Assembly: GCA_050953885.1 (NCBI GenBank)
Contig: JBMNNJ010000002.1
Span: forward strand, 190,140-247,643
DNA length: 57,504 nucleotides
Reading direction: 5' to 3'
From: Patescibacteria group bacterium
GTDB taxonomy: Bacteria > Patescibacteriota > Microgenomatia > 0-14-0-10-38-17
Each line of letters opens with the position of its first letter. Position 1 is the first letter of the stretch. Both the position numbers and the translations under genes were made by a program. Shown piece after piece: positions 7,851-56,920 of the stretch. The notes under the pieces were generated by a model. It saw nothing but the letters and a program-made list of their open reading frames with translations. It ran no database searches and had not been told where the DNA came from.

Positions 7851-7900
7851 CCTTTCTATTGTATAATATTTAAGATAGTATTTGGTATCTTGTATTAAGT

Positions 7901-24997: not shown

Positions 24998-25082
24998 TAC
25001 GGGCGTATTGCAATACGCCCCTACATTTTGTTCGCTCATTCGTGTTAATTCGTTTTCTATTCGCGTCAATTCGCGTCTTTTA
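24998..25082. repeat. Left arm of ~80-bp imperfect inverted repeat bracketing the rhomboid gene
   Basis: gggcgtattgcaatacgcccctacattttgttcgctcattcgtgttaattcgttttctattcgcgtcaattcgcgtc matches the reverse complement of 25765-25830. The same composite recurs at 49220-49282. Confidence 0.8.
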
Positions 25083-25083
25083 T

Positions 25084-25749
25084 TCAGGCTTCCAATTCCG
25101 CCGCCCTTTTTCTTCCCCCCATTAGTTTTACTAAAATCATTCCTGCCAAAAAGCCGCCTAAATGGGCAAAATAAGCCACCCCGCCTTCTTCCACCATGCC
25201 CAAGCTTCCCACGCCGGTCAAAAGTTGAGCCAAAAACCAGTAGAAAAGCATTGTCCAGGCCGGCAGGGTAGTTTGCTCATACCACCAGCCGAAAGAAAAA
25301 AGAATATCAATGCGATGTTTTGGGTATAAAAGCAGGTAGCCGCCCATCACCCCGGCAATCGCTCCGGAAGCGCCTACCTGAGGGATAGCGCTTGTCGGGT
25401 CAACAAAAATTTGGGCAAAATCAGCCGCCAAACCGCAGGCAAGATAAAAAAGAAGATAACGAAAATGGCCAAAATAATCTTCAAGATTATCGCCAAAAAT
25501 ATGCAAAAAAAGCATGTTGCCTAAAAGATGGCCCAAGCCAGCATGCAAAAACATCGAGGTAAAAAAACTTAAAAGATTCTCACCCTGAAGAACTAAGGCT
25601 GGGGTAAGGGCAAAACGGTCAAAAAAATCCTCCAAGACCGGCAGAGGGAGAGTATAGGTATAAATACAGATGGCCACATTCACCATTATCAAAAGATAAT
25701 TGATAAAGGGAAAACGGCGGGTGGGATTATGGTCGCGAAGAGGGATCAT
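25084..25749 (-). CDS. Rhomboid family intramembrane serine protease
   Basis: FLHAGLGHLLGNMLFL, GASGAIAGVMG (GxSG) and AHLGGFLAG across six TM helices. Confidence 0.8.
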   Translation of the reverse strand: MIPLRDHNPTRRFPFINYLLIMVNVAICIYTYTLPLPVLEDFFDRFALTPALVLQGENLLSFFTSMFLHAGLGHLLGNMLFLHIFGDNLEDYFGHFRYLLFYLACGLAADFAQIFVDPTSAIPQVGASGAIAGVMGGYLLLYPKHRIDILFSFGWWYEQTTLPAWTMLFYWFLAQLLTGVGSLGMVEEGGVAYFAHLGGFLAGMILVKLMGGRKRAAELEA

Positions 25750-25764
25750 AGAATTAAATTGTTA

Positions 25765-25830
25765 AAAACACGGATGAACACGAATGGGAAACGAATAAGC
25801 ACGAATTGTAGGGGAGGGTTTTCCCGCCCA
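25765..25830. repeat. Right arm of inverted repeat bracketing the rhomboid gene
   Basis: cacggatgaacacgaatgggaaacgaataagcacgaattgtaggggagggttttcccgccc. Confidence 0.8.
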
Positions 25831-25888
25831 ACCTTGCCCTTTTTCTCATTTTTTTCTAAAATAAAAACAGTTATCGTTTAATTTTATC

Positions 25889-26932
25889 ATGAAAGAGGCT
25901 CTTCTTTGGGAAGAAAAACCCCACCAAGCGGTTCGCTGTCTTGCCTGTCACCATTTTTGCCAAATTGCCCCGGGCCAAACCGGTGTTTGCGGGGTGCGGC
26001 AAAACCAAAATGGTCGGCTTTATTCTTTGGTTTATGGCCAGGCGGCCGCCATAGGTATTGATCCGGTGGAAAAAAAGCCTCTTTTCCATTTCCTGCCGGG
26101 CAGCTTGGCTTTCTCCTTCGGCACCCTCGGCTGTAATTTTTCCTGTCTTAACTGCCAAAACTGGGAAATTTCCCAACTTGCTAACCAAAAGAGGAGGGTG
26201 GAAAATTATCCCCGCCTTTTTTGGGGAGAAAAGCTAAGGCCGCCGCAAATTGTCAACCTTGCCCGCCAAAATCAGTGCCTCTCTATCGCCTACACCTATA
26301 ACGAACCGACCGTCTTTTTGGAATACGCCTTGGCAACGATGAAGCTGGCCCGCCGGGCCGGCTTAAAAAACATCTGGGTTTCCAATGGCTTTATGTCCTC
26401 AAAAACATTAGATTTAATCCTGCCTTATTTGGACGCGGCTAATATTGATATTAAATCAATCAAGGAACAGTTTTATCAAAAAGTCTGCGGCGCCAAGCTG
26501 GCACCGGTTTTGGAAAACTGCCAAAGGCTGGTTAAAGAAGAAGTTTGGCTGGAGGTAACCACCCTAGTTATTCCCACCCTCAACGATAAGATTGCTGTCT
26601 TAAATAATATTGCCGGCTTTATTAAGGAAAAATTAGGCGACGCTGTTCCTTGGCATTTAAGCGCCTTCTCGCCCGCGATTTCCTGGAAACTAAAAGACCT
26701 ACCCGCCACCCCGCCGACGACAATTAAAAAAGCCCGTCAGGAAGCTTTAAAAAAGGGCCTAAAATATGTTTACGCCGGCAACTTAGGACCATCTTCCGGC
26801 GACGATACCCTTTGCCCCGCCTGCGACCAGTTGGTGGTTAAACGCCGCGGCTACGAAATTACCCGCTTTGACCAAAACGGCCACTGCCCCAAATGCGGCC
26901 AAAAAATTGAAGGATGGTGGAGTTTCAAATGA
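25889..26932 (+). CDS. amrS: AmmeMemoRadiSam system radical SAM enzyme (AmrS)
   Basis: VRCLACHHFCQIAPGQTGVCGVRQN.NG.LYSLVYG, the radical-SAM cluster GCNFSCLNCQNWEISQ, and a C-terminal Cys4 knuckle CPACD...CPKCG. Confidence 0.8.
   Translation: MKEALLWEEKPHQAVRCLACHHFCQIAPGQTGVCGVRQNQNGRLYSLVYGQAAAIGIDPVEKKPLFHFLPGSLAFSFGTLGCNFSCLNCQNWEISQLANQKRRVENYPRLFWGEKLRPPQIVNLARQNQCLSIAYTYNEPTVFLEYALATMKLARRAGLKNIWVSNGFMSSKTLDLILPYLDAANIDIKSIKEQFYQKVCGAKLAPVLENCQRLVKEEVWLEVTTLVIPTLNDKIAVLNNIAGFIKEKLGDAVPWHLSAFSPAISWKLKDLPATPPTTIKKARQEALKKGLKYVYAGNLGPSSGDDTLCPACDQLVVKRRGYEITRFDQNGHCPKCGQKIEGWWSFK
26752..26922 (+). repeat. Direct repeat copy 1 (attL-like): functional 3' end of amrS
   Basis: Aligns with 33017-33187. 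26831-26907 is identical to 33096-33172 (77 bp). The flanks differ by scattered substitutions. Confidence 0.9.
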
Positions 26933-27043
26933 TGCTTTAGGAAAAAGTTGCTCTTTTTCTTCACTTAGGGCTTCTTACTAAAAATCTTAAACCGCTAAGA
27001 TCGTGCAATTCTGGTAAAATCGACGAGCAACAATGATATGATA

Positions 27044-27052
27044 TGATATAAT
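27044..27052 (+). promoter_or_regulatory. Possible extended -10 promoter element (TGaTATAAT) for the island cassette
   Basis: tgatataat lies 37 nt upstream of the CYTH ATG. No good -35 was seen. Confidence 0.3.
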
Positions 27053-27088
27053 GTTGCCTGACCGTTTAAGCTAACACATTTTTTGACC

Positions 27089-27667
27089 ATGCCCGATAAC
27101 TCTAAAAAACAAATCGAGATAGAATTAAGGTCTCTTTTGGACAAGAGAAAATATGTTGCCCTCAAAAAATTTTTAGATACTAACGCAAAAAGTTTAGGTA
27201 AAGATGATAAGGATGTCTATTTCTTCCTTCTGCCCGATAGAATCGTCAAGGCGGTTAAAAATATTTCTCAAAAAACAGCCAAAATCGTTATTAAACTTAA
27301 TCGCCTGGGGAGAGGAAGGAGTGACTTTGAGGAGATAGAGATCCCTATTTCGCCTCTTGATTTTGATAAGGCAGTCAAGCTTTTCTCCTCTCTTCGTTTT
27401 GATCAAATTCAAAACTCCTATCAAACAAGACAAAATTATCTTTACGAAGGGGTTGAGATTGCCTTAAAACATACCGATTCGTGGGGCTACCACATGGAGC
27501 TTGAAGTTATTATTGATGATCTTTCAAAAAAAAATGAAGCGGAGAGAAAAATATATCAAGTCGCCAATAAGTTGGGAGTAAAAATTATGACGGAAGAGGA
27601 AATCACCGAATTTGCCCAAAAAATTGACGCGCAATATAAAAAAGGTATTTATAAAAAATCAAAATGA
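27089..27667 (+). CDS. CYTH-domain protein (triphosphate tunnel metalloenzyme / class IV adenylate cyclase-like)
   Basis: N-terminal ExExK-type motif (IEIELR), alternating charged beta-strand pattern, late HMELEVI motif, ~190 aa. Confidence 0.65.
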   Translation: MPDNSKKQIEIELRSLLDKRKYVALKKFLDTNAKSLGKDDKDVYFFLLPDRIVKAVKNISQKTAKIVIKLNRLGRGRSDFEEIEIPISPLDFDKAVKLFSSLRFDQIQNSYQTRQNYLYEGVEIALKHTDSWGYHMELEVIIDDLSKKNEAERKIYQVANKLGVKIMTEEEITEFAQKIDAQYKKGIYKKSK

Positions 27668-28191
27668 GCTTAATATCTTTGGCAGAAAAAAATAATTTGC
27701 CCTCACTTCAATTAATGGACAAAGAAACTCTTGGCTGGATAAAAAGCAACAAGCCGAACTTTAGTTCCGGGCTGGCAATTAATAAATATTCCCGTGCTAT
27801 CAAAACCGACCTTCTTCGTTTTTCGCCTCCTGATTCCTGGTTCCAAGAAAAAAATCATATCAGTTCACTTCACGGCGTACGCCACATTCTTCGGGTTATA
27901 GCTAACGCTTCTTACCTTGCTCAAGAAAATAAAGTAAGCAGCCATTTAATAAACAAGCTGCTTGTTGCCGCTTCCTTACATGATTTAAGGCGAAAAAATG
28001 ATAAAGGTGATCCGGGCCATGGCCAAAGGGCGGTTGAATGGCTAAGTATTAACAAAAGTAAAGTCTGCAAACAATTTCATCTAAATTTTGACGAAAAAGA
28101 TTTTATAGATATCAAAAGCGCTATCTTACTTCATGAAGCCCCCTATGATCAATTTGATAAGAAATTCGCGTATACCTATGACGCTAAAAAG
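27664..28191 (+). pseudogene. HD-domain phosphohydrolase, 5' part (interrupted by IS)
   Basis: SSLHGVRHILRV...AASLHDLRR (H...HD) and LLHEAPYD. The frame is broken at 28192 by the IS terminal repeat. Confidence 0.75.
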
Positions 28192-29296
28192 GGTGATGTG
28201 CCAAGACATTGTATCCACTCCAAGGGCCTAGTTTTACCGAGACATCATCAAGGATAATCGGTTGTACATAACGTATGTTATCATCAATCTCTGGTAATTG
28301 CATTTTCAGATATTGGTAGGGTATTTGATAGTCTAAGGATGAGTGTTCCCGGACATTGTTGTAGTAATAAATGTAACCCAGGGCCTCATTCAAGAGATCT
28401 TTTTTGCTCTTAATCTGTAGGACCCTGGGAATGTAGAACTCTTCGTCATCGGTTCTATGGCTTCTTTCCAAATGAGCATTCTCCTCAGGATGACCTTTGT
28501 GGTTCTGGATTAATCTACAGCCAAAACCCCTGATCAGTTTTCTTAACTCTTTGACCTTCAACCAGGATCTACCCCCAAATTCCTCACCATTATCAACAGT
28601 AAAGGCAATCTCTGATTTAACCCCATGAGACCTTAACCAGGAAATAGTCCAAAGGTAAAAACACAAACCATTAGTCCAAGATTTTTCCTTGGAATAAGCA
28701 ATTAGTTTAAACCTAGAGTTAACATCCAGGGCTCCCCATTGATAGTTGGGAATATCATATTGGTTAAGATGAATAATTTGCTTTTTAGTCAGGGCTTTCT
28801 GATCCCTAATGAATTTGATATCCATTTGGACAATCTCAAAAGGTTTGGCTGAATACCAGTCAACAAACTCCCTTGGTTGTTTTCTTCTCTTGTTTGATTT
28901 TAGTTTGTAAGTAAGCCTGTCTTTATTCCTCCTTAGAATGTGCCTGATTGTTCCTGGAGGAACAAGAATCCCTTCATGTTTCTCAAGGTAGCGTGATAAT
29001 CTTTTTGGCCCCAGGTGGGTTTTGTTCTTGGCCTTAATGACTTTACCTTCTGTCTTGGCTGGTGTCTTGTTGGGCTGGTGTTTTGGTATCTTGGGTCTGT
29101 CTTTAAGATTGCCCTCTTTGCTTTTTGCCAAGATGTCATAAACCACTGTCCTGTTGACCCTAAAAACCCTGGCGGTATCAGCAATGTTGTGGCCATTAGT
29201 CTTTAGATACTCAATCACTGTTTGTCTGGCTGCTTCTGGATTAATCTTTCTTAATTCCTTGTAGTCTATCCGGATTCCATGGATTCCAGGACTCAT
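28184..29296 (-). CDS. IS transposase: N-terminal HTH + integrase-core (rve) DDE domain; IS481/IS3-superfamily-like, family not resolved
   Basis: IVQMDIKFI (D), AFTVDNGEEFGG (D) and HPEENAHLERSHRT (E) with typical spacing. The ORF reads through the left IR and stops 6-8 nt into flanking DNA. Confidence 0.85.
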   Translation of the reverse strand: MSPGIHGIRIDYKELRKINPEAARQTVIEYLKTNGHNIADTARVFRVNRTVVYDILAKSKEGNLKDRPKIPKHQPNKTPAKTEGKVIKAKNKTHLGPKRLSRYLEKHEGILVPPGTIRHILRRNKDRLTYKLKSNKRRKQPREFVDWYSAKPFEIVQMDIKFIRDQKALTKKQIIHLNQYDIPNYQWGALDVNSRFKLIAYSKEKSWTNGLCFYLWTISWLRSHGVKSEIAFTVDNGEEFGGRSWLKVKELRKLIRGFGCRLIQNHKGHPEENAHLERSHRTDDEEFYIPRVLQIKSKKDLLNEALGYIYYYNNVREHSSLDYQIPYQYLKMQLPEIDDNIRYVQPIILDDVSVKLGPWSGYNVLAHHPF

Positions 29297-29414
29297 GCTT
29301 TTTCACCCCCTTTACTACACTCTCAAAATTAACACCCACCAATTTTAACACTCTTCTTACATATTCCTCATACCCAAACCTCATGAAGTGTATAGCATGT
29401 CCTGGACACCGCAC
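28192..29414 (-). mobile_element. Insertion sequence (~1.22 kb) with rve-type DDE transposase, imperfect ~35-bp terminal inverted repeats and 5-bp target duplication
   Basis: The left end ggtgatgtgccaagacattgtatccactccaaggg matches the reverse complement of the right end, gtgcggtgtccaggacatgctatacacttcatgagg. AAAAG is present at 28187-28191 and 29415-29419. Confidence 0.75.
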
Positions 29415-29419
29415 AAAAG

Positions 29420-29650
29420 ATTATTGACTTATTAAAATCCGCCGATGCTTTAGATAGATACAGGCTACCCAAGATAAAATGGTGGATTAACGATAAGTAT
29501 TTAGCTTTATCCCCGTCTGACGACGCAAAGAAATTTGCTTATGAGTTGGTCTTAGAAAGTGAAAGTAATTTTTTAAAAACAAAAAAGAATCTCCCGTCAG
29601 TTTTGTCGGCTCTTAATTTACTAGAAAAAAAATATGGATCAAAGCAATAA
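29420..29650 (+). pseudogene. HD-domain phosphohydrolase, 3' part
   Basis: Translation: IIDLLKSADALDRYRLPKIKWWINDKYL... Removing 28192-29419 joins ...YDAKK to IIDLLKSADALDR in frame. Confidence 0.7.
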
Positions 29651-31034
29651 CCTTATTTCGCAATGGGCAGATGCACATGTTTTTTATAACATGTATTTAC
29701 ATAAACCTGCAAAAAACGCTCCTGAAATTGAGAAAGAGGAATTTTTGTGGAGGGAAAAACTAATTTCCGAATCACCAAACGAGCAGTTAATAACCCAAAA
29801 TTCTTTTTTTGAAACACTAAAAAAATCAAGCAAAATCTATTTGGCCCATATAACTTACAACCTAGACAAAATACTGGCTAACAAAAGAATTTTCCCAAGC
29901 GGCGGCTGTTTAACAGGCAGTATTTACTGTGTCCCTGTTGTCCCGGAAAACAGAAAATTAAGAGTTCATAATTTAGGCGTCTACCTTTCAGAAGTAGAAG
30001 CGCCCATGATGGCGCAAAAGATAAACAGTAAAAAGCAACCTGATGTTTTGCTTTTTGAAATTAAAAACAGCAAAAACAATCACCATAACCTTATCGGCAT
30101 TGATTATTTGCGCATGGGAGAAATACACTATTCTATTTACAAACAGCTGGAATATCTTCTTTCATACAAAGAGCGCTCTAATCTTTACACCATTGTTATC
30201 TCAAGAGTCAAACAATCACTGGATTATTTAAGCCTCTGTACGCAAACAGCAAGCCCTTTTGATAGTCTTGATGTTGATTATTTTCTAAATTGCTTTATTA
30301 ATACGATTTCGTCGTTACCCATCTTGGGCTATTTATATTTTGAAGTAATCTCGGAATATTTAATGTTGTTCCAAGACAACAATGAGGCAAAAAAATATTT
30401 TGAAAGAGGAGAACTTTATAACCCTACTTATAAAAACTTAATGTACGCCCTTCATCCTAAACTTAAGCAAAATTTTAAGTTAAACAGTTTTCAGCCTTCT
30501 ATCAAAGGCTTAATCATCTATTTAGAGCAAAGTAAAATCTTTACTAATTTTGATTCTAAACATTTTAAAGATTGGTTATGCAGGCGCTTAATATATCTTA
30601 CTAATGCGCGCTTAATTGATGGATCCGGGGGCGAGACAGACTGGCGCCGAATCTGTTGGGATTTTGATAATTTAGCCAAATATGTAAAGCCGTTGCTAGG
30701 TCATTTAATTCACCGGGAGCTTAGAAATTTTGGGCGTTACCCCAGCTTTTACTTCTACTTTGACCAAACTAAAGCCCTACAGGTTTGGAATTATTGGAAT
30801 CATATGGATATTGAAATTCCATTTAATGGTGTAATTCCCAAGGGCGAAGTGGGCATTAATCCTGCGTTCCCAAACTTAACATACAAGGTTTTTAAGTGTA
30901 AATATTATGCGGAGAATTCCGGATTTAGATATCTGGAGCCAGTAAAAGAACTAAAAATAGACATCGAGACAAAACTCATTAATCTTCGCTATTCCGGCAT
31001 GCATTCTAAGCAGAAACAAATAAAAAGGAGCTAA
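29634..31034 (+). CDS. Hypothetical 466-aa protein, no family recognised
   Basis: Long ORF in the AT-rich island, overlapping the HD gene end by 17 nt and followed 3 nt later by the next gene. No TM helices or known motifs were confidently seen. Confidence 0.55.
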   Translation: MDQSNNLISQWADAHVFYNMYLHKPAKNAPEIEKEEFLWREKLISESPNEQLITQNSFFETLKKSSKIYLAHITYNLDKILANKRIFPSGGCLTGSIYCVPVVPENRKLRVHNLGVYLSEVEAPMMAQKINSKKQPDVLLFEIKNSKNNHHNLIGIDYLRMGEIHYSIYKQLEYLLSYKERSNLYTIVISRVKQSLDYLSLCTQTASPFDSLDVDYFLNCFINTISSLPILGYLYFEVISEYLMLFQDNNEAKKYFERGELYNPTYKNLMYALHPKLKQNFKLNSFQPSIKGLIIYLEQSKIFTNFDSKHFKDWLCRRLIYLTNARLIDGSGGETDWRRICWDFDNLAKYVKPLLGHLIHRELRNFGRYPSFYFYFDQTKALQVWNYWNHMDIEIPFNGVIPKGEVGINPAFPNLTYKVFKCKYYAENSGFRYLEPVKELKIDIETKLINLRYSGMHSKQKQIKRS

Positions 31035-31037
31035 ATC

Positions 31038-31679
31038 ATGAATAATAAAGAAGGAAGGGTCTATCTGGTTGGGGGAGTAAACGGAGTAGGCAAATCAAGC
31101 CTACTACAAGAAATATCTGCCAACTATCCAGAATTTGAAGTATTTAAAGGTTCGGCAAAGTTTATGGAATGGCTAGGGTTACCCCCGGGTGATTATAAAG
31201 CTCTCCAAGAGTTGCCGGATGATTACAAAAATCTTGAAGTTTGTAAAATGATGATGCAAATTTTTAAAAGTAAGCCTCGCCCGGGAAAGACACTCCTAAT
31301 TGACGCCCATTATTTTAATTACAAACAAGGGGCTCTTATTGACGCCACCGGCGAGTGGGTTTCTTTTTTGGACGCTCTATTTGTTGTTTTAGCCCCCCCG
31401 GAAACAATTCTCCAAAGATTAGAACTTGACCAAACAACAAAAGATCGAGCAAGAGACATCCTCCCTCCTAACGCAGATTACAATAAAAAAATCGAAATGT
31501 TATATGGTTTTATTCAGGCGACAATTAATAAGGCGCAAGAGTTATCCCAAAAATACAAGATCCCTTATTTTTTAATTAATAACGGTTCTGAAGGATTCGG
31601 TCATGCGGTAGAAGAATTCTTGGGATATCATGCCGTTATCAATTCTAATATAAGTTCAAAAATAAATGACCAAAAATAA
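31038..31679 (+). CDS. P-loop nucleotide kinase resembling archaeal-type adenylate kinase (AdkA-like)
   Basis: Walker A VGGVNGVGKSS, then LLIDAHYFNYKQG...ALFVVLAPPETILQRLELDQTTKDRARD. This parallels the AdkA pattern (VAVDTH...IIVVETTGDEIL.RR..D.TR.RD). An RBS (aaaaaggag) is present. Confidence 0.6.
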   Translation: MNNKEGRVYLVGGVNGVGKSSLLQEISANYPEFEVFKGSAKFMEWLGLPPGDYKALQELPDDYKNLEVCKMMMQIFKSKPRPGKTLLIDAHYFNYKQGALIDATGEWVSFLDALFVVLAPPETILQRLELDQTTKDRARDILPPNADYNKKIEMLYGFIQATINKAQELSQKYKIPYFLINNGSEGFGHAVEEFLGYHAVINSNISSKINDQK

Positions 31680-32406
31680 TATCAAAGACATCCAAAAGCT
31701 AGAATCAATTGCCATTAACCTGCTCAACAGTGGTAATGTCACTCACGGCTTAGGTCGATCCCTGCGTGGTTTGCTTGGGGAAATTGCTGTTTATAAAAAT
31801 CACATTAATAGTCTTCCTCGGCTTAAATCTTACTTAAACACGCAAAGCTATAAAAATGTCCAAGTTGGAGGGGGAAAACATTTCTTAAAAGGTTTTATAA
31901 ATATCGATATCGTCCCCCCAGCAGATATTATTTTTGATGTAAGAGAAGGATTGCCTTTGAAAACAAATTCTACTGATTTTATTTTTTCTGAACACTTCCT
32001 CGAACATATAGATTACCCTCTATCGGTAAATAAGTTCATTAGTGAATGCTACAGAATATTAAAAAAAGAAGGAAAACTTGTTATCGGCGTTCCAGACAGC
32101 CAGTTAATAATCTCGGCATATGTGAAAAAAGATAAAAAGCTATGGGAACAAATGATTAAAAAGTGGTATTCAAACAGAAATTGCTTAGAACACTTTAATA
32201 CTTATATCGACTTGGTAAATTACCATTTTAGAGATCAGGACGATGATTTTAAATATCACCCCCATTTTTGGGCTTATGATTTTGAGAAATTGAAATCTCT
32301 CCTCACAGGCGTTGGCTTTATTAAGGTTAAAAAATGGAAATTTAATAAAGCCATCGCCAACCCCAAAAGAAAATGGGGAAGCCTCTATGTTGAAGCATTA
32401 AAATAA
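31666..32406 (+). CDS. Class I SAM-dependent methyltransferase (Methyltransf_11/23-like)
   Basis: VQVGGGKHFLKGFINIDI (motif I), DFIFSEHFLEHI, ECYRILKKEGKLVIGVPD. Confidence 0.75.
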   Translation: MTKNNIKDIQKLESIAINLLNSGNVTHGLGRSLRGLLGEIAVYKNHINSLPRLKSYLNTQSYKNVQVGGGKHFLKGFINIDIVPPADIIFDVREGLPLKTNSTDFIFSEHFLEHIDYPLSVNKFISECYRILKKEGKLVIGVPDSQLIISAYVKKDKKLWEQMIKKWYSNRNCLEHFNTYIDLVNYHFRDQDDDFKYHPHFWAYDFEKLKSLLTGVGFIKVKKWKFNKAIANPKRKWGSLYVEALK

Positions 32407-32409
32407 AAA

Positions 32410-32937
32410 ATGAAAGAAAGACAAAAAATATTTGAAGCAACGCAAATCGCCATAAAAGAACGCCTTGAGAAAACTGAAGATCAGTTGCAAGGCAATACTT
32501 TTAATATGAGGAATCTTGATATGGACGGCGACATGATGGATGATCCTCTGCTACACAGGTTAATGGCAGAACGAATACGATTAGAAGATGAGATAAGCGA
32601 ACTTAAAGGATATTTGGGAAATGAGACAGAGGTCTTGCGTCACCCAGAGCAAAATGGTTCTATCTCACTTGGGCACTTAGTGCATGTAAAAATAAGATAT
32701 CCAAATGGGGAAATGGAAGAAACGAGAGTTTCTCTCGGAAGTGCACTTGATAAAAGATATTTATGGCAAGATGAAGAAAACAACAACCCAAAACATATCT
32801 TAATCTCGCAAGATAGCCCACTTGCTCAAGCATTAATCGGAAGAAAAATTGGCGATACTGTTCTATACCAAGCCCCTGAAGGACAAGGAGAAATCATAAT
32901 TTTAGAAGTAGAAGATTCTCCGTTTCTTAAGAAATAA
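32410..32937 (+). CDS. GreA/GreB C-terminal-domain protein (Rnk / nucleoside-diphosphate-kinase-regulator-like)
   Basis: N-terminal coiled-coil-like region followed by GHLVHVKIRY...ISQDSPLAQALIGRKIGDTVLYQAPEG..EIIILEV. This matches the GreA-C fold signature (S..SP.G.AL.G...GD.v). Confidence 0.55.
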   Translation: MKERQKIFEATQIAIKERLEKTEDQLQGNTFNMRNLDMDGDMMDDPLLHRLMAERIRLEDEISELKGYLGNETEVLRHPEQNGSISLGHLVHVKIRYPNGEMEETRVSLGSALDKRYLWQDEENNNPKHILISQDSPLAQALIGRKIGDTVLYQAPEGQGEIIILEVEDSPFLKK

Positions 32938-33016
32938 AATTTGAAAGACCAAGAAGGGAACCGCTATAAGCGTCAAATACAACAACGGTTGTTCTCTTTG
33001 TTTAGGTAATTACGGC

Positions 33017-33187
33017 AAGGGGCCTCAAACATGTTTACGCCGGTAACTTGGGACCATTTTCCGGCGACGATACCCTTTGCCCCACCTGCGGTCAATTGGT
33101 GGTTAAACGCCGCGGCTACGAAATTACCCGCTTTGACCAAAACGGCCACTGCCCCAAATGCGGCCAAAAAATCGCCGGTTGGTGGGG
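33017..33187 (+). repeat. Direct repeat copy 2 (attR-like)
   Basis: See 26752-26922. The 77-bp identical core is 33096-33172. Confidence 0.9.
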
Positions 33188-33200
33188 AAAAACGCCTTAG
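33021..33200 (+). pseudogene. Displaced 3'-terminal fragment of amrS (last ~59 codons, frame intact, no start)
   Basis: In-frame translation: GLKHVYAGNLGPFSGDDTLCPTCGQLVVKRRGYEITRFDQNGHCPKCGQKIAGWWGKTP*. The live gene end reads GLKYVYAGNLGPSSGDDTLCPACDQLVVKRRGYEITRFDQNGHCPKCGQKIEGWWSFK*. Confidence 0.85.
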
Positions 33201-33273
33201 AGGTGAGTTTCCCGCCACGAGAGGACTATTTACGCCTCGGCTAAAAGCCAAAAGCAGCGTTTGCAATTAGTTC

Positions 33274-34608
33274 CTAATCCCCCTCTTTCAAAATCGCTAA
33301 AATTTGCTCGCCAATAGCGGCGTTAAAGCCGGAAAAAGCCTTATCGCCGATAAAGATAATCGGGTAATAACCAAAAGAAGAAGAAACGCCTTCGCTTTTA
33401 TTACCAACGGCCTGTTTTTTCTCTTCCAGCTTCTGGGCAAAATCGGCTTCTTCTGTTAAATACTCCTCGCAGGGAATATTTTTGTCCTTGAAAAATTCTT
33501 TGGCCTCAAGGCACATTGGGCCAGTATCGTTATGAAACATTAAAATTTTTTCCGTTTCTTGGACTTCTTCTTTTTTCGGTACAGGTGTTTCTTCTGGCTC
33601 CTCGCCCGCTGTTGGCCAATATTTTCCCACCTCGTCGACGGCGCAAGGGTTGGCAATATTTTCCTCCTCCTCATAAGCAGTCAGCGGCCTGATTTTCTCC
33701 GGCGTATAGGGAGCGGTGCGGTTTTGGGGAATTTGCCAGCCGGGTAAAACTACCACCTCATTCTGGGCCAGCTCATCAATCGTTACCCACTCCACTTCTT
33801 CATCGTCAAAAAAACTCATCCACATTTGATACCACGGCTTTTTAAGACCGCCAATATAGGTATGGGAAACCGGAGTAATCTGGCTCTGCCGAAGGGCCGC
33901 CTTAAGCTCCGCCAGCATATCATCCGGCGTTCCTCCCCGCTCGTAGTAACTATAATCGCAAAGACTGCCATATTTAAACTTAATGGAGGGAATGTTGGAA
34001 ACGGAAACCACTTTGACATCGGGATACTCCTCGGCCTGATAAATAGTAGCTTTGGTGTCGGTGGTGCCCCGAGCAAAAAGATAAGGAATACCCAATTCTT
34101 GAGCCACCTCGATTGTGGTTAAATCAGTGCCCATATAACGAGCCGAGATAATCCGTAAGGGCTGGCCGGTGCAGGCCTCAATGCGTTCTTTCAAGTTAAC
34201 AATCGCTTTTTTTTGCTCTTCATAGGGTTTATCCCAAAAAGGGGCTTCCAAGCTTGAACCGGCAATTTCTAAATTATAGGGGAGTAACTTTTTAACATCT
34301 TCGCAATTTTTTTCAATAAAATCCGCCCCCACCATTAGATAACCATGAATTCCCCGCCGGTAAAGCTCATTAACAAAATTAGCCAAACCAACGGTGTCTT
34401 TTTGTTCAATTAAAATCATTAGCCCTTTCGGGGGAGAATAAAGCCGCGTCGATGGCGCTGCCTGATAAGCTTTTGTTTCATAAAGCTCATCTTGACAAAA
34501 CGCCAAATCTTTTTTTAAAGAAGCCAAAGCGGAGGAAGAAAAAAGGCCGGTGATTAAAAAGATCACCAAAAGACAAAGAAGGATAATTTCTTTTTGCGCT
34601 TTCTCCAT
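33274..34608 (-). CDS. Membrane-anchored/secreted protein with C-terminal glutaredoxin-like (thioredoxin-fold) domain; N-terminal domain unassigned (possibly deacetylase-like)
   Basis: Signal anchor IILLCLLVIFLITGLF. The C-terminus ILMFHNDTGPMCLEAKEFFKDKNIPCEEYL...YPIIFIGDKAFSGFN follows the Grx layout but has a single Cys. Confidence 0.45.
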   Translation of the reverse strand: MEKAQKEIILLCLLVIFLITGLFSSSALASLKKDLAFCQDELYETKAYQAAPSTRLYSPPKGLMILIEQKDTVGLANFVNELYRRGIHGYLMVGADFIEKNCEDVKKLLPYNLEIAGSSLEAPFWDKPYEEQKKAIVNLKERIEACTGQPLRIISARYMGTDLTTIEVAQELGIPYLFARGTTDTKATIYQAEEYPDVKVVSVSNIPSIKFKYGSLCDYSYYERGGTPDDMLAELKAALRQSQITPVSHTYIGGLKKPWYQMWMSFFDDEEVEWVTIDELAQNEVVVLPGWQIPQNRTAPYTPEKIRPLTAYEEEENIANPCAVDEVGKYWPTAGEEPEETPVPKKEEVQETEKILMFHNDTGPMCLEAKEFFKDKNIPCEEYLTEEADFAQKLEEKKQAVGNKSEGVSSSFGYYPIIFIGDKAFSGFNAAIGEQILAILKEGD

Positions 34609-34776
34609 TTCTGCTTTCAGCTTAACATTTATTTTTCCCTCTTGTCAACCCATGCCGGTGTCGGCGATAACCACACTAAACACACCTTAGAGGTGGTTTC
34701 CTATTTACACCTCTGGTAAAACTGGTTTCCCTACTTATACCAACATGGCGACGGATATTTTAGTTCTTCCACTTTA

Positions 34777-34802
34777 ACTAAATTGCTATATAGCAATTTA
34801 GT
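34777..34802. promoter_or_regulatory. 26-bp perfect palindrome, candidate operator in divergent intergenic region
   Basis: actaaattgctat|atagcaatttagt (13+13, no mismatch) lies ~70 bp upstream of the predicted promoter. Confidence 0.45.
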
Positions 34803-34871
34803 CTTTAAATAAATTAAAACACACAAATATTAATGTCGCAAAAGTATTTGACTTATACATGGCATATGGTA

Positions 34872-34900
34872 TTGACAAGCTGCCCTTTTGTTGTTATTAT
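34872..34900 (+). promoter_or_regulatory. Sigma-70-type promoter: TTGACA-17 nt-TATTAT
   Basis: ttgaca (34872-34877), the 17-nt spacer agctgcccttttgttgt, and tattat (34895-34900). It lies 48 nt upstream of the DUF5320 ATG, which has the SD aaggaggtga. Confidence 0.5.
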
Positions 34901-34948
34901 GAATAAGTATTCAATATATTATTTAATAATAAAAGGAGGTGAGAGAAA

Positions 34949-35194
34949 ATGCCAGGATTTGACGCCACCGGCCCGATGGGGACAGGACCAGTTACCGGCC
35001 GGGGTTTCGGCCCTTGCGGTTTAGGTCTGGGCTGGAGGAAAAGGTTTGGCGCGGGACGAGGTTTAGGAAGATATTTTCGCTGGAGTTGGCCGACTACCCG
35101 CGAGGACCAGGAAAAAGCTCTTGCCGATTACAAGAAAGCGCTTCAGGAAGAAATGGAAGACGTGGAAAAGGAACTTGCCGACTTGCAAAAGTAA
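34949..35194 (+). CDS. DUF5320 family protein
   Basis: MPGFDATGPMGTGPVTGRGFGPCG... N-terminus plus a C-terminal acidic coiled coil, typical of DUF5320. Confidence 0.7.
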   Translation: MPGFDATGPMGTGPVTGRGFGPCGLGLGWRKRFGAGRGLGRYFRWSWPTTREDQEKALADYKKALQEEMEDVEKELADLQK

Positions 35195-35203
35195 GAACCG
35201 AAT

Positions 35204-35253
35204 AAATCCCTACCTTGTCTGGTTTTTTATCCCAAATAGCAAGGTAGGGATTT
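35204..35253 (+). other. 14-bp stem-loop between the DUF5320 and DUF134 genes
   Basis: aaatccctaccttg (35204-35217) pairs perfectly with caaggtagggattt (35240-35253). The loop contains a T6 run and there is no T tract after the stem. Confidence 0.4.
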
Positions 35254-35276
35254 GCCGTATTATAATATACTTAATT

Positions 35277-35555
35277 ATGCCCCGACCAAGAGTTCCCCGC
35301 TGTCTGCGGTTTAAGCCGCATGTTTATTATTTTAAGCCTCAAGGGATTCCTTTAAGAATGCTTGAGGAAGTAGTTTTGCGACCCGATGAACTAGAAGCCC
35401 TGAAATTATACGAGATCGATGGGCTTAACCAGATAATGGCGGCCAAGAAAATGAAAATTTCCCAACCAACCCTTGCCCGACTTTTGGATAGCGCTAATAA
35501 AAAAATTGCCCAAGCAATTATTACGGGAAAAGCGATTAGAATTGAAGAAAAATGA
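35277..35555 (+). CDS. DUF134 (UPF0251) predicted DNA-binding protein
   Basis: MPRPRVPRCLRFKPHVYYFKPQGIPL...LRPDELEALKLYEIDGLNQIMAAKKMKISQPTLARLL is the canonical DUF134 pattern. ATG 35277 was chosen within ORF 35121..35555. Confidence 0.75.
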   Translation: MPRPRVPRCLRFKPHVYYFKPQGIPLRMLEEVVLRPDELEALKLYEIDGLNQIMAAKKMKISQPTLARLLDSANKKIAQAIITGKAIRIEEK

Positions 35556-36676
35556 AAAAGAAATTACTTGCCTTTCTTTTCTTAGCGGCAGTCTTTTTTT
35601 CTCTTGGCGGCGCTTTTATTTTTGCCCAAGGTGAAGCGGTTAGCCAACCGCCCCAAGAAGAAACCCTTGAAGCGGTGGTAGAAAAAATAGCGGAAGAAAA
35701 ACAAATCAAGCCCTTAGGGGCAGAAAACTTTCAGCTTTATCAAAAACTGGAACTTTTGGTCACGAAAGGCTCTTTAAAAGATAAAAAAATTATTGTTGAA
35801 AACGGCAATTTGCCGGTCGCTAATAACTTACGATATAGGGTGGGTGATAAAGTAATTGTTTCCTATTCACTTGATTTTGAAGGTAACGACAGTTTTTATA
35901 TTACCGATTATGTTCGGCGCGAATCTTTACTTTGGCTATTTTTAATCTTTGCCTTGCTGGCGATCGCCGTTGCCCGCTGGCGGGGAGCGGCCTCCATTTT
36001 GGGTATGGGCATCTCCTTCTTGGTTATTTTTATCTTTATTCTCCCCAAAATTTCTGCGGGCGCTAATCCGGTGGGAATTGCTATTTTAGGCGCGCTGATG
36101 ATTATTCCCCCCACTTTTTTTCTTTCCCACGGCTTTAATAAAAAAACCTTAGTCGCCATGGGGGGAACACTGATCGCCCTAATTATTACCGGAATTTTGG
36201 CTAATATTTTTGTGGAAGCCGCCAAGCTCACCGGCTTTGCCTCCGAAGAAGCCGGCTTCTTACAAGTAGCCAAAGGGGGAGCAATTAACATGAAAGGGCT
36301 TCTTTTGGCCGGAATTATCATCGGCCTTTTGGGAGTTTTGGACGATGTGACCGTTTCCCAAGCGGCAATTGTTTTTCAACTTAAAGAAGCCAATGACAGG
36401 CTGAAATTTAACCAACTTTACCAGCGGGCGATGAGGGTGGGGCAAGATCATATTGCCTCAATGATTAACACCCTTATTTTGGTTTACGCCGGCGCTTCCT
36501 TGCCACTCCTGCTTCTTTTCCTTGACAATCCCCACCCTTTTTCAGAAGTGGTTAATTATGAAATTATTGCCGACGAAGTGGTCCGCACCCTGGTAGGCAG
36601 TATTGGTCTTATCTTAGCCGTCCCTCTTACCACCCTCATTGCTTCTTTAGCGGTAAGCGCGGAAAAGAAGAAATAA
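35552..36676 (+). CDS. YibE/F family membrane protein
   Basis: Signal peptide, then a soluble N-domain, then 6-7 TM helices with LGVLDDVTVSQAAIVFQL and QDHIASMINTLILVYAGASLPLLLL. ATGA overlap with the DUF134 stop. Confidence 0.75.
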   Translation: MKKKLLAFLFLAAVFFSLGGAFIFAQGEAVSQPPQEETLEAVVEKIAEEKQIKPLGAENFQLYQKLELLVTKGSLKDKKIIVENGNLPVANNLRYRVGDKVIVSYSLDFEGNDSFYITDYVRRESLLWLFLIFALLAIAVARWRGAASILGMGISFLVIFIFILPKISAGANPVGIAILGALMIIPPTFFLSHGFNKKTLVAMGGTLIALIITGILANIFVEAAKLTGFASEEAGFLQVAKGGAINMKGLLLAGIIIGLLGVLDDVTVSQAAIVFQLKEANDRLKFNQLYQRAMRVGQDHIASMINTLILVYAGASLPLLLLFLDNPHPFSEVVNYEIIADEVVRTLVGSIGLILAVPLTTLIASLAVSAEKKK

Positions 36677-37465: not shown

Positions 37466-37646
37466 GAAAAAAAGCCTAGGAGCGGCTTGTTGCTAGCTTC
37501 GAGGATAAAGATTAAGAATAAAAATTATCAAGCTTTCTTCCTTAAAACTTGAAATGCTTTAGAACATTCCAGGGAAAAAATAATAAACCTTTTTAGCAAT
37601 GTGATATAAGACCAAACCACTGTTTGCTACCAAATTAGTATAGAAG

Positions 37647-38480
37647 CTAATAGAAAGCGCCGGAGCAGTAGCTGGTGGTTGGCAGCCATTCATTTTTTGC
37701 TACCTCTCCGGAATTAGTATGATAAAAAACTTCAAACCCATTTTTACCTAATTTTTCGGCCATCATTAGAATCGTTACTAAAGCAGGGGGAGAATCAAGA
37801 TAGCGATCGTCTAGAGCCAAAATTTCCCGATAATTAAAACTTTCTATCAGCCTTAAGGTTAAATCGTCTTTTGATCGCGCTTCTTCGCTCCTTAAATGGT
37901 GAGAAAAATCAATTGAAGCAAGAATAATCACGCCTTCTTTTTGGTAAGTCAACAATTTTTGGGCCAAAACGCCAATTTCCTCAAAATCAAGACGGCCGCT
38001 TAAAACAAGGGGAACCACTGTTGTTTCGGGAAGGTAAAGCTTCAAAAAGGGCAAAAGCGCGCCCACGGCATGCTCGTTTTTCAAAACCTCCTCGTCAACT
38101 TCCACCAAATTTTCTGCCAACAAGCCTTCGATAATTAATTCGTCGGGAAATATTTTCCCAAAAGGCGTCTGCCAACCGGAAAGACTGGTAAGCACCTTGA
38201 AGTTTCCTTTTTCATAATGATTAGGGCCAAGAATAATAATTGTCTTCGGGTTTTGGAAAGAAAGCCTTTGGAAAAAATCGGTGATAATAAAACCGGCGAA
38301 GATATCATGGGGAACGATCCCTAATGCAATTTGATAATTTTCCTGGCGGGTTTTTGCTCCCATTATCCCTTTATCAAAAAGCTCTTTATCAAAAAAAACA
38401 GTTTGATAAGAGTCAACCAATAAGAAGGTAAAAAAAATAAGCAGGCTAACGACTATCCCCCTAAAAATAACCTTTTTCAT
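37647..38480 (-). CDS. Memo-like protein (AmmeMemoRadiSam system protein B family) with N-terminal membrane anchor
   Basis: GIVPHDIFAG, ILGPNHY, HAVGALLPFL and ASIDFSHH match the Memo metal-site pattern. TM helix GIVVSLLIFFTFLLV. The start overlaps the alpha-2-macroglobulin stop by 4 nt. Confidence 0.75.
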   Translation of the reverse strand: MKKVIFRGIVVSLLIFFTFLLVDSYQTVFFDKELFDKGIMGAKTRQENYQIALGIVPHDIFAGFIITDFFQRLSFQNPKTIIILGPNHYEKGNFKVLTSLSGWQTPFGKIFPDELIIEGLLAENLVEVDEEVLKNEHAVGALLPFLKLYLPETTVVPLVLSGRLDFEEIGVLAQKLLTYQKEGVIILASIDFSHHLRSEEARSKDDLTLRLIESFNYREILALDDRYLDSPPALVTILMMAEKLGKNGFEVFYHTNSGEVAKNEWLPTTSYCSGAFY

Positions 38481-41400
38481 CCTCTCGTCTTAATAAAAGA
38501 AAGCACTTTTTGAATAAAGTTTAAAATTGCCTGCCATATCCGGACAAAAAAATTACCCCTTGTCCCATCTCCTGGGGAGAAAACCAATTCCGACGGGCTT
38601 AATATCTCAACCTCCCCAACCTCGCTACGACCATTAATTTCGGGAGCGTACATTAAAGAAGCGCTTGCCGGCGGCACGATAAAAGTCCCGGCGCTTACTA
38701 CCCGAGCTTTATAAGTATAACTTCGCTCCCCGGGCGCAAGACGGTAAAGAGCTAAAACCACCCCATCCTCGCTCACCTCCTGATCGCTAACATCATAGGA
38801 AGTATAATAAGAACTCCTCTCTCCATATTGTTCGCTTTCAAACTTAGGATTAACGGGAATTAAACCGGCGGGGAGTTGATCCTCAATCACCGCGTAATGC
38901 TCTTCGGTGTTTAGTCCCCCTACGGTAATTTTAACAATCACCGTCTCTCCCACCACCAAAGGATAGCCCTCCCCTTTTTCGCTTATATACTCTCTTTTAA
39001 CCCACAGACCATTGTTTTTTGCTTCTGCCTTTCTCTCGGTTCTAAACTCGTTAGCAATTAGGGTAGAGTAGAGTTCACCTTCGCCCTCTTTCTCAATCGT
39101 TAATTCTAAATTATTATTTTTCACTTCCTTAAGAGGAATTTTAATCTCGGCAATTTCCTGCTTAAGGTCAGAAATATTTCCCCGGCTAATTTCTTGATTA
39201 TTTAGTAAAACTCTATAAGTATAATCTGGGCTTGTCTCTTGATTACTTTGCCCAAAATCAACTAATGCCTGAACTACTTGCGCGGTGGCAAAAGTATTCG
39301 CCCAGTAATCAAACTTTCTGTTGCGCGCCAAAAAACGCGCCGCTTTGGTAGCCACATCCCGATGCTCGCCCGAAGAGGTAATCGCTCTTAAAGCCAAGGC
39401 AGTGGAAACTTCTTTGGAACCAAAATTCTTTTCCTCTCCTTCTTCCCAAAATACCGCTTCTCCCTGATAACGAGCTAAGGCAAGAAGTTTTGCCAAGCCG
39501 TTACTTTGGGGATCTTTATTACCGTTTCTTAAATTACTCATCAGCGCTAAGGCAAGGTAGTCGGGACCCAAATTATCTAAATCCGTCAAAAACTTCTTCC
39601 CTTTCTCTGAACCAATTAAAGAAAGAGCATAGGTTTTAGCAATCCAATCCTCACGGCTATATTCGCGGCTAATATTTTCTTGAAAGTCATAATAAGAATC
39701 TCCCTCAAGATAAGCTTTTGCCTTTTTAAAAACTTCCTCATCGATTCTCCCTCCTGCCTGTTTGGCTCTTAAGAGATACTCGACTACATAGGCGGTAATA
39801 AAAGGATTAGAGCTCCCTTCTTTCCACCAACTCCAACCCCCATCATCATGCTGGAGCAGAACCAGCTTCTTAATGCTTTCCTTAATCACCTGTTCAGGGC
39901 CCTTCTCTAAATTTTGAGAAACAAACAATTGGGGGTTTTCCTTGGCAATCACCGCCGGGGCAAGACGACTGGCTACCTGTTCCGCACAACCATAAGGATA
40001 ATTAATCAGGTATTCCATCGCCGTCGGCAGCATTCCCATCAGGGAAGGGGACAAAGAAAGACTGACGGCTGATTTTTCCTGATCGCGATCAGGCGAGAGC
40101 TTAACCGAAAATGTTTTTGGCCCCTCGCCGGCAAAAGCGCTTTTTTCCCAAAAGCCAAAAGAATAAACGGGAATTTCCACGACCACCTCGTCCGAGACGC
40201 TTTTGTCTTCTGAAGAACCAGCCGAGAAGGTGAGTTTTGCCTTTTCTTTTTCCTCATCGGGGCTTACCTGCCAGTAAATCTGTTTTATCTCTTGAGGCTT
40301 TAGGGAAATTGTCTGCGCTTCCTTTGGGGAAACTTTTCCGGCCTCAAACTTCATTCTTACCTCCAAGACCTCTTCTTTTTCGGTAAAATTTTGCACTAAA
40401 GCAGAGAGAAAAATTTGGTCACCCTCGCGCAAGATATTAGGCAATACCGGCCGGATAACCACTTCTTTACTCACCACCACCTCACTTGTGCTCTGACCGG
40501 CTTTAGTATCCGCTGTTGCTCCTAGGGCCGAAATTACCCAAGTGGTGAGATTATCGGGCAATTTAAAGCTTATTTGCGCCCGACCGTCATTACCAGTTTG
40601 CACCACCGGATTCCAATAGGCCGTATCCTCAAAAATATCCCGGGTGGAACCTCCTCCTCCCCCCATTTCCGGGCCGCCCATATTGTAAAACCCTTCTAAG
40701 GAATGAGCCATGGCAGTGGTATTGGAGCGCTCCTGCCAAAACTCCCTAAAAATTTCTGCCGGCTTTTTATCAACCAACTCAAAGAGGGCCTTATCCACCG
40801 CCCAAACTGCCAACTCGGCCGCTACCGGATTGCCGGCAAAATCATTAGTTTGCAAATTTAAGGTCAGTGTTTCCCCGGGAGCGTAAGTTTCTTTGTCCGG
40901 CGTAATACTCACCACCATTCGTTTACTCTCGGCAGGGACTTTAATATCAACCGACGCATAATCCAGACCGTCATCGGCAAAACTTAAAGCATTTGCAAAA
41001 ATATTAGGCATATCACTTTCAACTAAGGGAACCTCTATTGTTTCACTTTTACCGCTAATTTTAACTACCTGAAAACGGTGGACCCAACCTCTTTCAAAAG
41101 ACAAAAATATGTCCCGATCGGGAACTTCGGAAAAAATTGTCAGCCGCACCTTCTCGGCAGGAGAATAGGTTAGCTTATCAGCTTTTATCGTTAATTTCTG
41201 CTGGTTATCACCGGCATAACCTTCATAAATAGGCTGATCTTTACCTACCACCCAAAAACTAAAATCTTTACTAATTAAATTCCCCCGGCGGTCACTACCG
41301 GAAACCGTAAAATTATAAGAGCCGGGCTTTGAAGGGACAAGTGAAAAATTAACTTCTCCTTGGGCATTGCTGGCGGCTTTCAACTCCGGCAAGTCTTCTT

Positions 41401-43132: not shown

Positions 43133-43329
43133 TCTTATTCTCAAGATATCACAATCTTTAAAACCTTACAATAATAAGAGCGTTCTTAACTTTCTTACAT
43201 CTTTCTTCCACCTTAGGCTATTTACACCTCTGGCAAAAATTAGTTTGCTAAGGTTAAAGGGTTAAATTACTAAAACACACGAATTGACATAAAATGGAAA
43301 ATGAATGGACACGACTAGCGGGAAGTTCC

Positions 43330-54599: not shown

Positions 54600-54654
54600 C
54601 TAGTTAAGAGTACACAATTTACAACCTAAAAGCAAGTCCTACCTTACTATCTAA

Positions 54655-55923: not shown

Positions 55924-56012
55924 AACTAACCTTTAATAAAACTCTAATTGTTTTTTAAAAACGTTCCCCCTTTTTAAGCAAGCTTTAAGAGAAACAAATC
56001 TCTTTTTAAGTT

Positions 56013-56891: not shown

Positions 56892-56920
56892 CGTTTTTAT
56901 TATTGGAACATAAATTTTAT

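Follow-up and report, generated by a model that had tools for sequence, protein, structure and literature searches.

A horizontally acquired island without a recombinase of its own at the 3' end of amrS in a Patescibacteria bacterium

The DNA analysed here, a stretch of 57,504 nucleotides from a Patescibacteria group bacterium (hereafter the window), carries an island of foreign DNA at the 3' end of amrS, the gene for the AmmeMemoRadiSam radical S-adenosylmethionine (SAM) enzyme. The interior of the island (26933-33016, 6,084 bp) lies between long, imperfect direct repeats and holds six cargo genes, one of which is split by a nested insertion sequence (IS); once this IS and its 5-bp target duplication are removed, the island measures 4.9 kb. 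On balance, we think that this horizontally acquired, integrase-less island was probably inserted, and then spread, by homologous recombination of the host in a Campbell-type manner. The features of the locus are listed in Table 1.

Direct repeats, empty site and native end of amrS

The amrS product belongs to its named family, with 347 bits against TIGR04337 (cutoff 220). An initial annotation, made from the sequence alone, had described the DNA between the repeats as more AT-rich and different in codon use, and this was borne out. The GC content of the interior was 0.369 (0.360 without the nested IS) and that of the 20-kb flanks 0.431 and 0.433. GC at third codon positions was 0.30-0.36 in the six island genes and 0.451 +/- 0.042 in 34 host genes (Mann-Whitney p = 9.5e-5), gene GC differed likewise between island and host (Mann-Whitney p = 2.6e-7), and the codon-usage distance of the pooled island genes (0.872) exceeded that of every one of 500 random host gene sets (maximum 0.859). 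The island is of foreign origin.

Direct repeats of about 170 bp do bracket the island: positions 26752-26920 and 33017-33185 align over 169 nt with 92% identity (BLAST E = 2.8e-65 in a self-search inside the window), and the core noted in the initial annotation was confirmed as 77 nt without a mismatch (26831-26907 = 33096-33172). To the left of this core the alignment gives nine substitutions in 79 nt (26761, 26765, 26779, 26785, 26793, 26819, 26826, 26827 and 26830), where seven in about 65 nt had been counted. The divergence reported for the last ~15 nt is real, but it is strong over the final ~25 nt ahead of the two stop codons and includes an indel. As had been proposed, the distal copy can be read in frame as an alternative amrS C-terminus (...CPTCGQLVV...GQKIAGWWGKTP*, with its stop at 33198-33200); this fragment is carried elsewhere as a 50-aa hypothetical protein (P0242, P0243). 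The placement of an acquired island in the 3' end of a protein-coding gene is supported too, no tRNA or tmRNA having been found in the window and no Rfam family in its 25-35 kb region.

The genome is one of Candidatus Shapirobacteria, and the closest AmrS homologues come from this group too. In two island-free relatives (P0002 at locus L001 and P0004 at locus L004) AmrS ends in GQKIAGWWGKTP (...AGWWGKTP), identical to the reading of the distal copy. The unoccupied site that the initial annotation had proposed as a check was seen in L001 (Logan SRR29552642), where amrS runs straight into the gene found at 33274-34608 in the window; the gene order there is rhomboid, amrS, the 444-aa gene, DUF5320, DUF134 and YibE_F, and the locus is collinear with window positions 25039-26920 and then 33021-36580 at 88% identity. 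Altogether, the site is unoccupied in L001/L002 and in L004. DNA past the distal stop resembles that past amrS in L001 and L004, whereas DNA past the proximal stop does not. Since both the downstream DNA and the C-terminus of island-free relatives match the distal copy, this copy is the resident gene end in displaced position, and the EGWWSFK tail of the proximal copy came with the island. The earlier suggestion that the element supplied a replacement gene end and displaced the resident one is thus supported by L001 and L004, with the replacement amounting to eight codons only. This tail (EGWWSFK*) sits downstream of both CxxC motifs. On sequence grounds amrS is now a chimera of the host body and the last eight island-type codons, and the swap, confined to these codons, would be functionally minor. 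In L004 a Phd/YefM-PIN toxin-antitoxin pair (L004:433-909) stands upstream of amrS where the rhomboid gene stands elsewhere, so that the left neighbourhood is variable too.

That the distal copy might be a mis-assembled duplicate of the amrS end was considered and rejected, its chance being negligible. Short contigs (L122, L123 and ten similar ones) do begin and end inside the repeat, as if assemblers broke there. However, the left repeat, island and right repeat are spanned together, with both unique junctions, by each of L114, L119 and L120, and the right repeat and right flank by five more contigs (L115-L118 and L121); their sources are different samples and assemblers (JGI, Logan and ENA assemblies), and the two copies differ from each other. 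Samples with the island include JGI 3300053716, 3300010338, 3300010344 and 3300027914 and Logan SRR31128651, ERR6188786 and ERR4982103. AmrS (MBP8591554) and the distal fragment of 50 aa (MBP8591561) are both annotated in a Shapirobacteria metagenome-assembled genome at NCBI, and 109 blocks of the public collection contain the identical GreA-like protein. An additional C in AAACGCCGC (L114:2238-2589, region of window position 26845) sets L114 apart from the otherwise identical window; it truncates AmrS to 327 aa (P0249, ending ...VVKRPRLRNYPL) and represents a frameshift allele or else an error of sequencing.

Table 1. Coordinates of the amrS island and of its borders in the window
Feature	Coordinates	Strand	Remarks
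amrS (AmmeMemoRadiSam radical SAM enzyme), 347 aa	25889-26932	+	NCBIfam TIGR04337, Pfam Radical_SAM
Proximal direct repeat (attL-like)	26752-26920	+	island-type tail from 26908
Left-end non-coding spacer of island, 150 bp	26933-27082		in all island-bearing strains, missing at empty sites
Cargo gene 1, CYTH-domain protein (class IV adenylate cyclase/triphosphatase-like), 194 aa	27083-27667	+	Pfam PF01928
Cargo gene 2, 5' part, HD-like protein split by the IS	27664-28191	+	H..HD..D-type motif
Nested IS481-like IS, 1,223 bp	28192-29414	-	single helix-turn-helix (HTH) + rve DDE transposase
Cargo gene 2, 3' part (HD-like, ...ADALDRYRLPK...)	29420-29650	+	
Cargo gene 3, X466, 466 aa	29634-31034	+	confident model, orphan fold
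Cargo gene 4, P-loop kinase-like protein (AAA_17), 213 aa	31038-31679	+	Pfam PF13207, E = 1.1e-9
Cargo gene 5, SAM-dependent methyltransferase, 246 aa	31666-32406	+	Pfam Methyltransf_11, Methyltransf_23
Cargo gene 6, GreA/GreB C-terminal-domain protein (Rnk-like), 175 aa	32410-32937	+	Pfam PF01272
Right-end non-coding spacer of island, 79 bp	32938-33016		amrS-like fragment joins at 33016/33017
Distal direct repeat (attR-like), displaced native amrS 3' end	33017-33200	+	stop 33198-33200, native downstream DNA after
Right flank gene, 444 aa, weak polysaccharide-deacetylase similarity	33274-34608	-	directly after amrS in empty site L001

Variable junctions and the mode of insertion

Comparison of the occupied loci showed that only the two inner edges of the repeats are constant. 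In all distal (attR) copies just the first ~15 nt (33017-33031) are consistently island-type (GGGGCCTCAAAC as against native AAGGCCTAAAAT), the window's own copy being host-type from about 33058, and in all proximal (attL) copies the tail is island-type from 26908 on; these two edges are island-type in every strain examined, and between them the repeats are mosaic. The left switch from host to window sequence falls at about 26530 in P0241 (which shares the AmrS sequence of the window only from about residue 217), at 26722-26785 in L125, at 26873-26907 in L119/L120 and at 26891-26907 in L017. L125 differs from the window at 82 sites in 25889-26755 and at none in 26756-27363. L120 has 16 differing sites in 26645-26872, a single one (29782) in 26873-33057, eight in 33058-33134 and about 45 more up to 34222, and L017 is host-type until 26890 and island-type after it, its own island being 1-5% diverged from that of the window. 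The same site is occupied in at least four amrS backgrounds.

When 13 variable positions of 26793-26872 / 33058-33137 were tabulated for attL and attR of strain groups A and B, a single attP with one crossover per strain group had to be rejected, as no crossover position reproduces the variable sites of both groups; homologous exchange has therefore acted inside the repeats. The island is near-identical between strain groups whose flanks differ by 4-7%, a pattern that shows recent recombination at the island borders. The outer flanks are mosaic as well (in 34601-36500, L118 is 99.2% and L114 98.3% identical to the window). Among relatives whose AmrS bodies are about 85-100% identical to that of the window (P0001-P0006, P0241-P0261), the last ~45 residues are modular: five tails (EGWWSFK, AGWWGKTP, AGWWD/AGRWD, GATIPGRWA/T and one longer) occur in free combination with two internal modules, GDDT.CPAC..LVVKRRGYEITRF and DDNTLCPVCGQLVVERQGYTVKRF, and the DNA downstream of amrS differs among L001, L003 and L008. 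The end of amrS thus has the appearance of a tolerated breakpoint beside a variable region, bordering a recombination hot spot.

All open reading frames (ORFs) of at least 150 aa in the window were scanned, those of the island with Pfam and NCBIfam models. No tyrosine or serine recombinase was found among them, the island included, as the initial annotation had stated. Related cassettes carry no recombinase, their extra genes encoding a second methyltransferase and a ThyA-like protein, and the alternative DNA downstream of amrS in L008 and L003 (few short contigs) holds no integrase. The idea implied earlier, of a self-integrating element with a dedicated site-specific mechanism, did not hold up, since there is no integrase remnant, the junctions vary and no circular junction was found.

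We infer that the original insertion was driven by homology rather than catalysed in trans; the lack of a recombinase, the variable junctions and the unrelated repeats that bracket the same cassette at other loci (see below) favour this view. On the incoming DNA there would have been the final ~60 codons of an amrS allele of foreign origin. The repeats, with host-type outer parts and island-type inner edges, indicate one crossover between this foreign 3' fragment and the resident gene, by which the homologous-recombination machinery of the host would have inserted the operon. The product would be an amrS made of the host body and the 8-codon tail of the island, with the native gene end shifted 6.3 kb downstream as a dead fragment. 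Island and flanks would then have been reshuffled among related strains and species by homologous recombination, using amrS on the left and the displaced end together with the next gene on the right. At a later time, an IS481-like IS would have jumped into the HD-like gene in one strain group.

Circular DNA that carries a chromosomal fragment integrates in this way, by Campbell-type insertion-duplication, in naturally transformable bacteria. The amrS locus resembles such insertions in the direct duplication around the insert, the reciprocal hybrid copies, the independence from a recombinase and the variable crossover; the duplicated flanking segment has donor-type inner edges, and the crossover position is not fixed. 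It differs from them in being a natural event in an uncultured bacterium of the Candidate Phyla Radiation (CPR), in which the homology spans no more than ~180 nt at ~90% identity. Patescibacteria are reported to have competence and pilus genes prevalently (PMC12455944).

Several observations weigh against this reading. The expected circular junction (attP-type, ...GGTAATTACGGCAAGGGGCCTCAAACATG...CAAAAAATTGAAGGATGGTGGAGTTTCAAATGATGC; the attB-type counterpart being ...CAAAAAATCGCCGGTTGGTGGGGAAAAACGCCTTAG directly after intact amrS) gave 0 matches when searched as an exact gapped pattern in JGI metagenome contigs (contigs only), and no donor lineage with amrS natively beside the cassette was found among the loci. 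Neither RecA-type recombination nor a DNA-uptake route is encoded within the 57.5-kb window. In L017 the crossover lies within the last 17 identical nt, a short stretch by the standards of RecA-type recombination. The island is nearly identical across strain groups, and it may itself have moved, or DNA of island-free donors may have replaced its flanks. A site-specific event followed by gene conversion could also have left the mosaic seen inside the repeats. Finally, ATGTTTACGCCGG is invariant at 26766-26778 (= 33031-33043), just to the right of the island-specific bases, and could be a site-specific core; a crossover at this stretch or to its left agrees with the window, L125 and P0241. With a 76-aa C-terminal peptide of island-type AmrS as query, too short for the word index, no candidate donors were retrieved, and nothing was found in the literature on amrS as an integration site.

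The mosaic and the invariant stretch bear on a second explanation, to which we give a real though minor chance. It holds that a tyrosine or serine integrase from elsewhere in the genome or from a helper acted in trans on a non-autonomous island, either a satellite or similar to a cis-mobilizable element (CIME), whose attP mimics the amrS 3' end; gene conversion at a later time would then account for the mosaic of the repeats. The architecture is classic for such an event, with direct repeats that are imperfect, a target in the 3' end of a gene, a reading frame that is restored and an empty site in relatives; one site is occupied in at least four amrS backgrounds, and the invariant 13-nt stretch beside the island-specific bases could serve as core, compatible with the window, L125 and P0241. 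Moreover, CIMEs are a described class that keeps attL and attR and lacks genes for integration and transfer (PMC5704250). However, no integrase was found in the window, in related cassettes or in the DNA downstream of amrS in relatives, nor are there decayed genes from ICEs (integrative and conjugative elements), IMEs (integrative and mobilizable elements) or phages, the conserved operon occurring elsewhere without mobile-element genes. L119/L120 and L017 are host-type to within 35 and 17 nt of the tail, so that a core at 26766-26778 needs extra events; the unrelated repeats at other cassette loci would require several integrases; and the missing circular junction in JGI contigs counts against this explanation as well.

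Two known systems illustrate the comparison. SGI1 in trmE is an integrase-driven island that targets the 3' end of a protein gene by means of its own tyrosine integrase and an 18-bp core. The amrS island is like islands of this type in its gene 3' end target, substitute gene end, direct repeats and empty site, but unlike them it has no integrase and no fixed crossover; of the marks of an integrative island, direct repeats and an unoccupied attB were thus found and an element-encoded integrase was not. CIMEs related to ICESt1/ICESt3 in Streptococcus thermophilus target the 3' end of fda. With these the island shares att-like repeats with the 3' end of a protein gene, the lack of integration and transfer genes, and presence/absence polymorphism. 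In contrast to CIMEs, it has no mobility genes in decay and gives no sign that it descends from an ICE or IME, and no cognate integrase-bearing element was found at the site: the att repeats without integration genes are present, the decay from an ICE or IME with a cognate element is not seen. Its junctions vary and its repeats are long (169-181 nt) and mosaic, which points to homologous rather than site-specific exchange.

An improbable third route is one-sided, homology-facilitated illegitimate recombination, in which a linear fragment of amrS plus cassette would have been anchored on the left by amrS homology and its right end joined at the microhomology AAGG to the recipient amrS at about 26752, upstream of the anchor, so duplicating ~170 bp. 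The island-specific bases at 33017-33031 would then be junction-associated errors. The abrupt start of amrS homology at 33016/33017, with AAGG shared at the joint, fits this route, as do the host-like character of the distal copy from about 33058 in strain comparisons and the failure to find either a recombinase or a circle. Yet a foreign allele accounts equally well for a cluster of three to four differences within 15 nt and the host-like sequence after it, and the circular permutation of gene order between cassette loci is left unexplained. Homology-facilitated illegitimate recombination, furthermore, usually deletes recipient DNA instead of duplicating it.

The cassette elsewhere, its cargo and the nested insertion sequence

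The genes for the CYTH, HD-like, X466 and methyltransferase proteins are syntenic in many CPR contigs; most CPR loci also have the P-loop gene, and some the GreA-like gene. The same core is syntenic in about 100 species of Streptomyces, Kitasatospora and other actinomycetes, and X466, in about 100 Streptomycetaceae species (loci L034-L113), always stands beside the CYTH, HD-like and methyltransferase genes. Among variant cassettes, L005 and L006 encode one more methyltransferase and L015 a ThyA-like protein. Elsewhere in the CPR the cassette occupies unrelated sites. Tight bracketing by direct repeats of unrelated sequence was seen in 3 of 14 cassette loci scanned, some of which are cut by contig ends: a 43-bp repeat in L006 (5891-5933 / 11513-11554) equal to the last 43 bp of the upstream PKD-domain gene, the distal copy being followed by what reads by eye as a terminator-like GC-rich hairpin and T run; a 38-bp repeat in L015 (606-643 / 5678-5715), the sole direct repeat of that locus; and a 101-bp repeat in L005 (2-102 / 5984-6084). 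A 48-bp, hairpin-containing repeat around L018/L024 lies in a repeat-rich region and was not counted. No bracketing repeats were found at six Streptomycetaceae/actinomycete loci checked. The gene order is circularly permuted, the GreA-like gene being last in the window and L007 and first in L005 and L006, which fits a circular intermediate. Nothing was found in the literature on this cassette.

A broader proposal, which we put forward tentatively and regard as rather unlikely, is that the cassette represents a family of recombinase-free mobile islands in CPR bacteria that travel as a circularised fragment with the captured end of the host gene that was their last neighbour and, after uptake, re-insert by a single homologous crossover into this same gene in another host. 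This would explain the unrelated repeats at each locus, the permuted gene order and the absence of an integrase.

Distant X466 paralogues (31-34%) occur on Streptomyces and Nonomuraea plasmids, where their neighbours are genes for Tmk, a NUDIX protein and a glycosyltransferase, joined on the Streptomyces plasmid by an epimerase gene. Streptomyces sp. A5-4 has two chromosomal X466 copies (L103, L111), and X466 also lies in two proviral regions predicted by IMG/VR (L010, L011).

The cargo reads as one six-gene operon without a mobile-element backbone, and its domain content and gene associations suggest a role in nucleotide metabolism or modification. The CYTH protein matches PF01928 with E = 1.5e-9 and scores 44.5 bits against TIGR00318 (cyaB), under the cutoff; the HD-like protein has no Pfam match despite its H..HD..D-type motif; and the GreA/Rnk-like protein gives 47.8 bits, again under the cutoff, against NCBIfam PRK05892 ('nucleoside diphosphate kinase regulator'). 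Searches of the cargo against PADLOC anti-phage defence models returned marginal matches only (E >= 5.8e-5), and an exact look-up of the CYTH protein and of P0241 found no record of either.

X466 has 475 homologues, in CPR bacteria and Actinobacteria, and matched no Pfam, NCBIfam or PADLOC model and nothing in a phage collection. Its AlphaFold2 model is confident (predicted local distance difference test, 89; predicted template-modelling score, 0.90), and a fold search with it against PDB and BFVD gave nothing at E < 0.1, with no structural match to any solved transposase or recombinase there. That X466 is itself a new kind of recombinase is accordingly very improbable in our estimate. X466 has many invariant polar residues, among them H72, S89, C92, H112, N113, E122, R361, R364 and R368.

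The IS within cargo gene 2 has all the marks of the IS481 family, namely an HTH and DDE transposase, a length (1,223 bp) within the usual range of about 1-1.3 kb, inverted repeats and a short target duplication. Its transposase ORF (28184-29296, minus strand, 370 aa) matches Pfam rve_3 and HTH_32. Among NCBIfam models IS481 scores highest, with 134 bits against an equivalog cutoff of 224 that it does not reach, and we regard the element as a divergent member that is like the family in transposase type, inverted repeats and 5-bp duplication. Its ends carry imperfect ~28-bp terminal inverted repeats flanked by the target duplication AAAAG (28187-28191 and 29415-29419). The statement in the initial annotation that all six genes point the same way overlooked this minus-strand transposase gene, which lies inside a nested IS that splits a cargo gene. 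A gene of recombinase type does therefore exist here, as part of the IS and not of the island itself. In L017, L119, L120, L122 and L123, with the same island at the same site, 28191 is joined directly to 29415 with a 5-bp overlap. Excision of 28192-29419 in silico restores a 252-aa HD-like ORF, and intact orthologues measure 249-252 aa in L007, L120, L122 and L123 and 242-252 aa across related cassettes. The IS is single-copy in the window and is carried by the window and L114; it is a late passenger in this one strain group and a very recent polymorphism, unrelated to the ~170-bp repeats and to the insertion of the island, because otherwise identical islands exist without it. The first 207 positions of L116 equal window 29502-29296 reversed and are joined to 29641 onward, which looks like a fold-back assembly artefact at the IS edge.

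The presence of a DDE transposase gene inside the island, and of the uncharacterised X466 in every cassette, could prompt the view that the long repeats are a target-site duplication made by a transposase, be it the IS481-like enzyme or, for instance, X466. We find this hardly credible. For the IS itself it was rejected on the grounds that the IS has its own inverted repeats and 5-bp duplication and that IS-free islands exist. A target-site duplication would start as identical copies, yet here an identical core is followed by tails that differ by an indel and at most of their positions, the distal one agreeing with island-free relatives. X466 lacks a structural match to solved transposases or recombinases, the six Streptomycetaceae/actinomycete loci checked have no bracketing repeats, and we know of no DDE family that makes duplications of ~170 bp.

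Elsewhere in the window, a gene for a Memo-AMMECR1 fusion (6150-7919, minus strand) lies 18 kb from amrS and is presumably the AmrAB partner of amrS. A second, stand-alone Memo gene (37647-38480, minus strand) abuts a gene for a 1,555-aa alpha-2-macroglobulin (38477-43144). L114 and L115 join window position ~37514 (~37470-37514) to 57504 downward (54040-57504) in inverted order, and L116 and L117 keep the order of the window. A 206-bp inverted repeat, 88% identical, is found at 38008-38213 and 57455-57250. These data suggest that the ~20-kb segment is polymorphic through inversion or rearrangement, or else that the assemblies give alternative orders.

Significance of the locus

The genomes of CPR bacteria (Patescibacteria) are tiny, with few integrative elements that can be recognised; reliance on DNA uptake is presumed for these organisms, and their mobile DNA is, to our knowledge, poorly characterised. 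The island is well documented but fairly ordinary. The locus offers a population-resolved case from the CPR, with the site occupied and empty, the island with and without a nested IS, and several host backgrounds. It shows the gain of a whole operon at a gene end, without a recombinase encoded by the element, and its later reshuffling through homologous recombination. The final codons of amrS are flagged as a tolerated breakpoint. Finally, the island points to an operon that is widespread and uncharacterised and encodes a protein of orphan fold. CPR bacteria have this operon in common with Streptomyces, in which it could be studied by genetic means.

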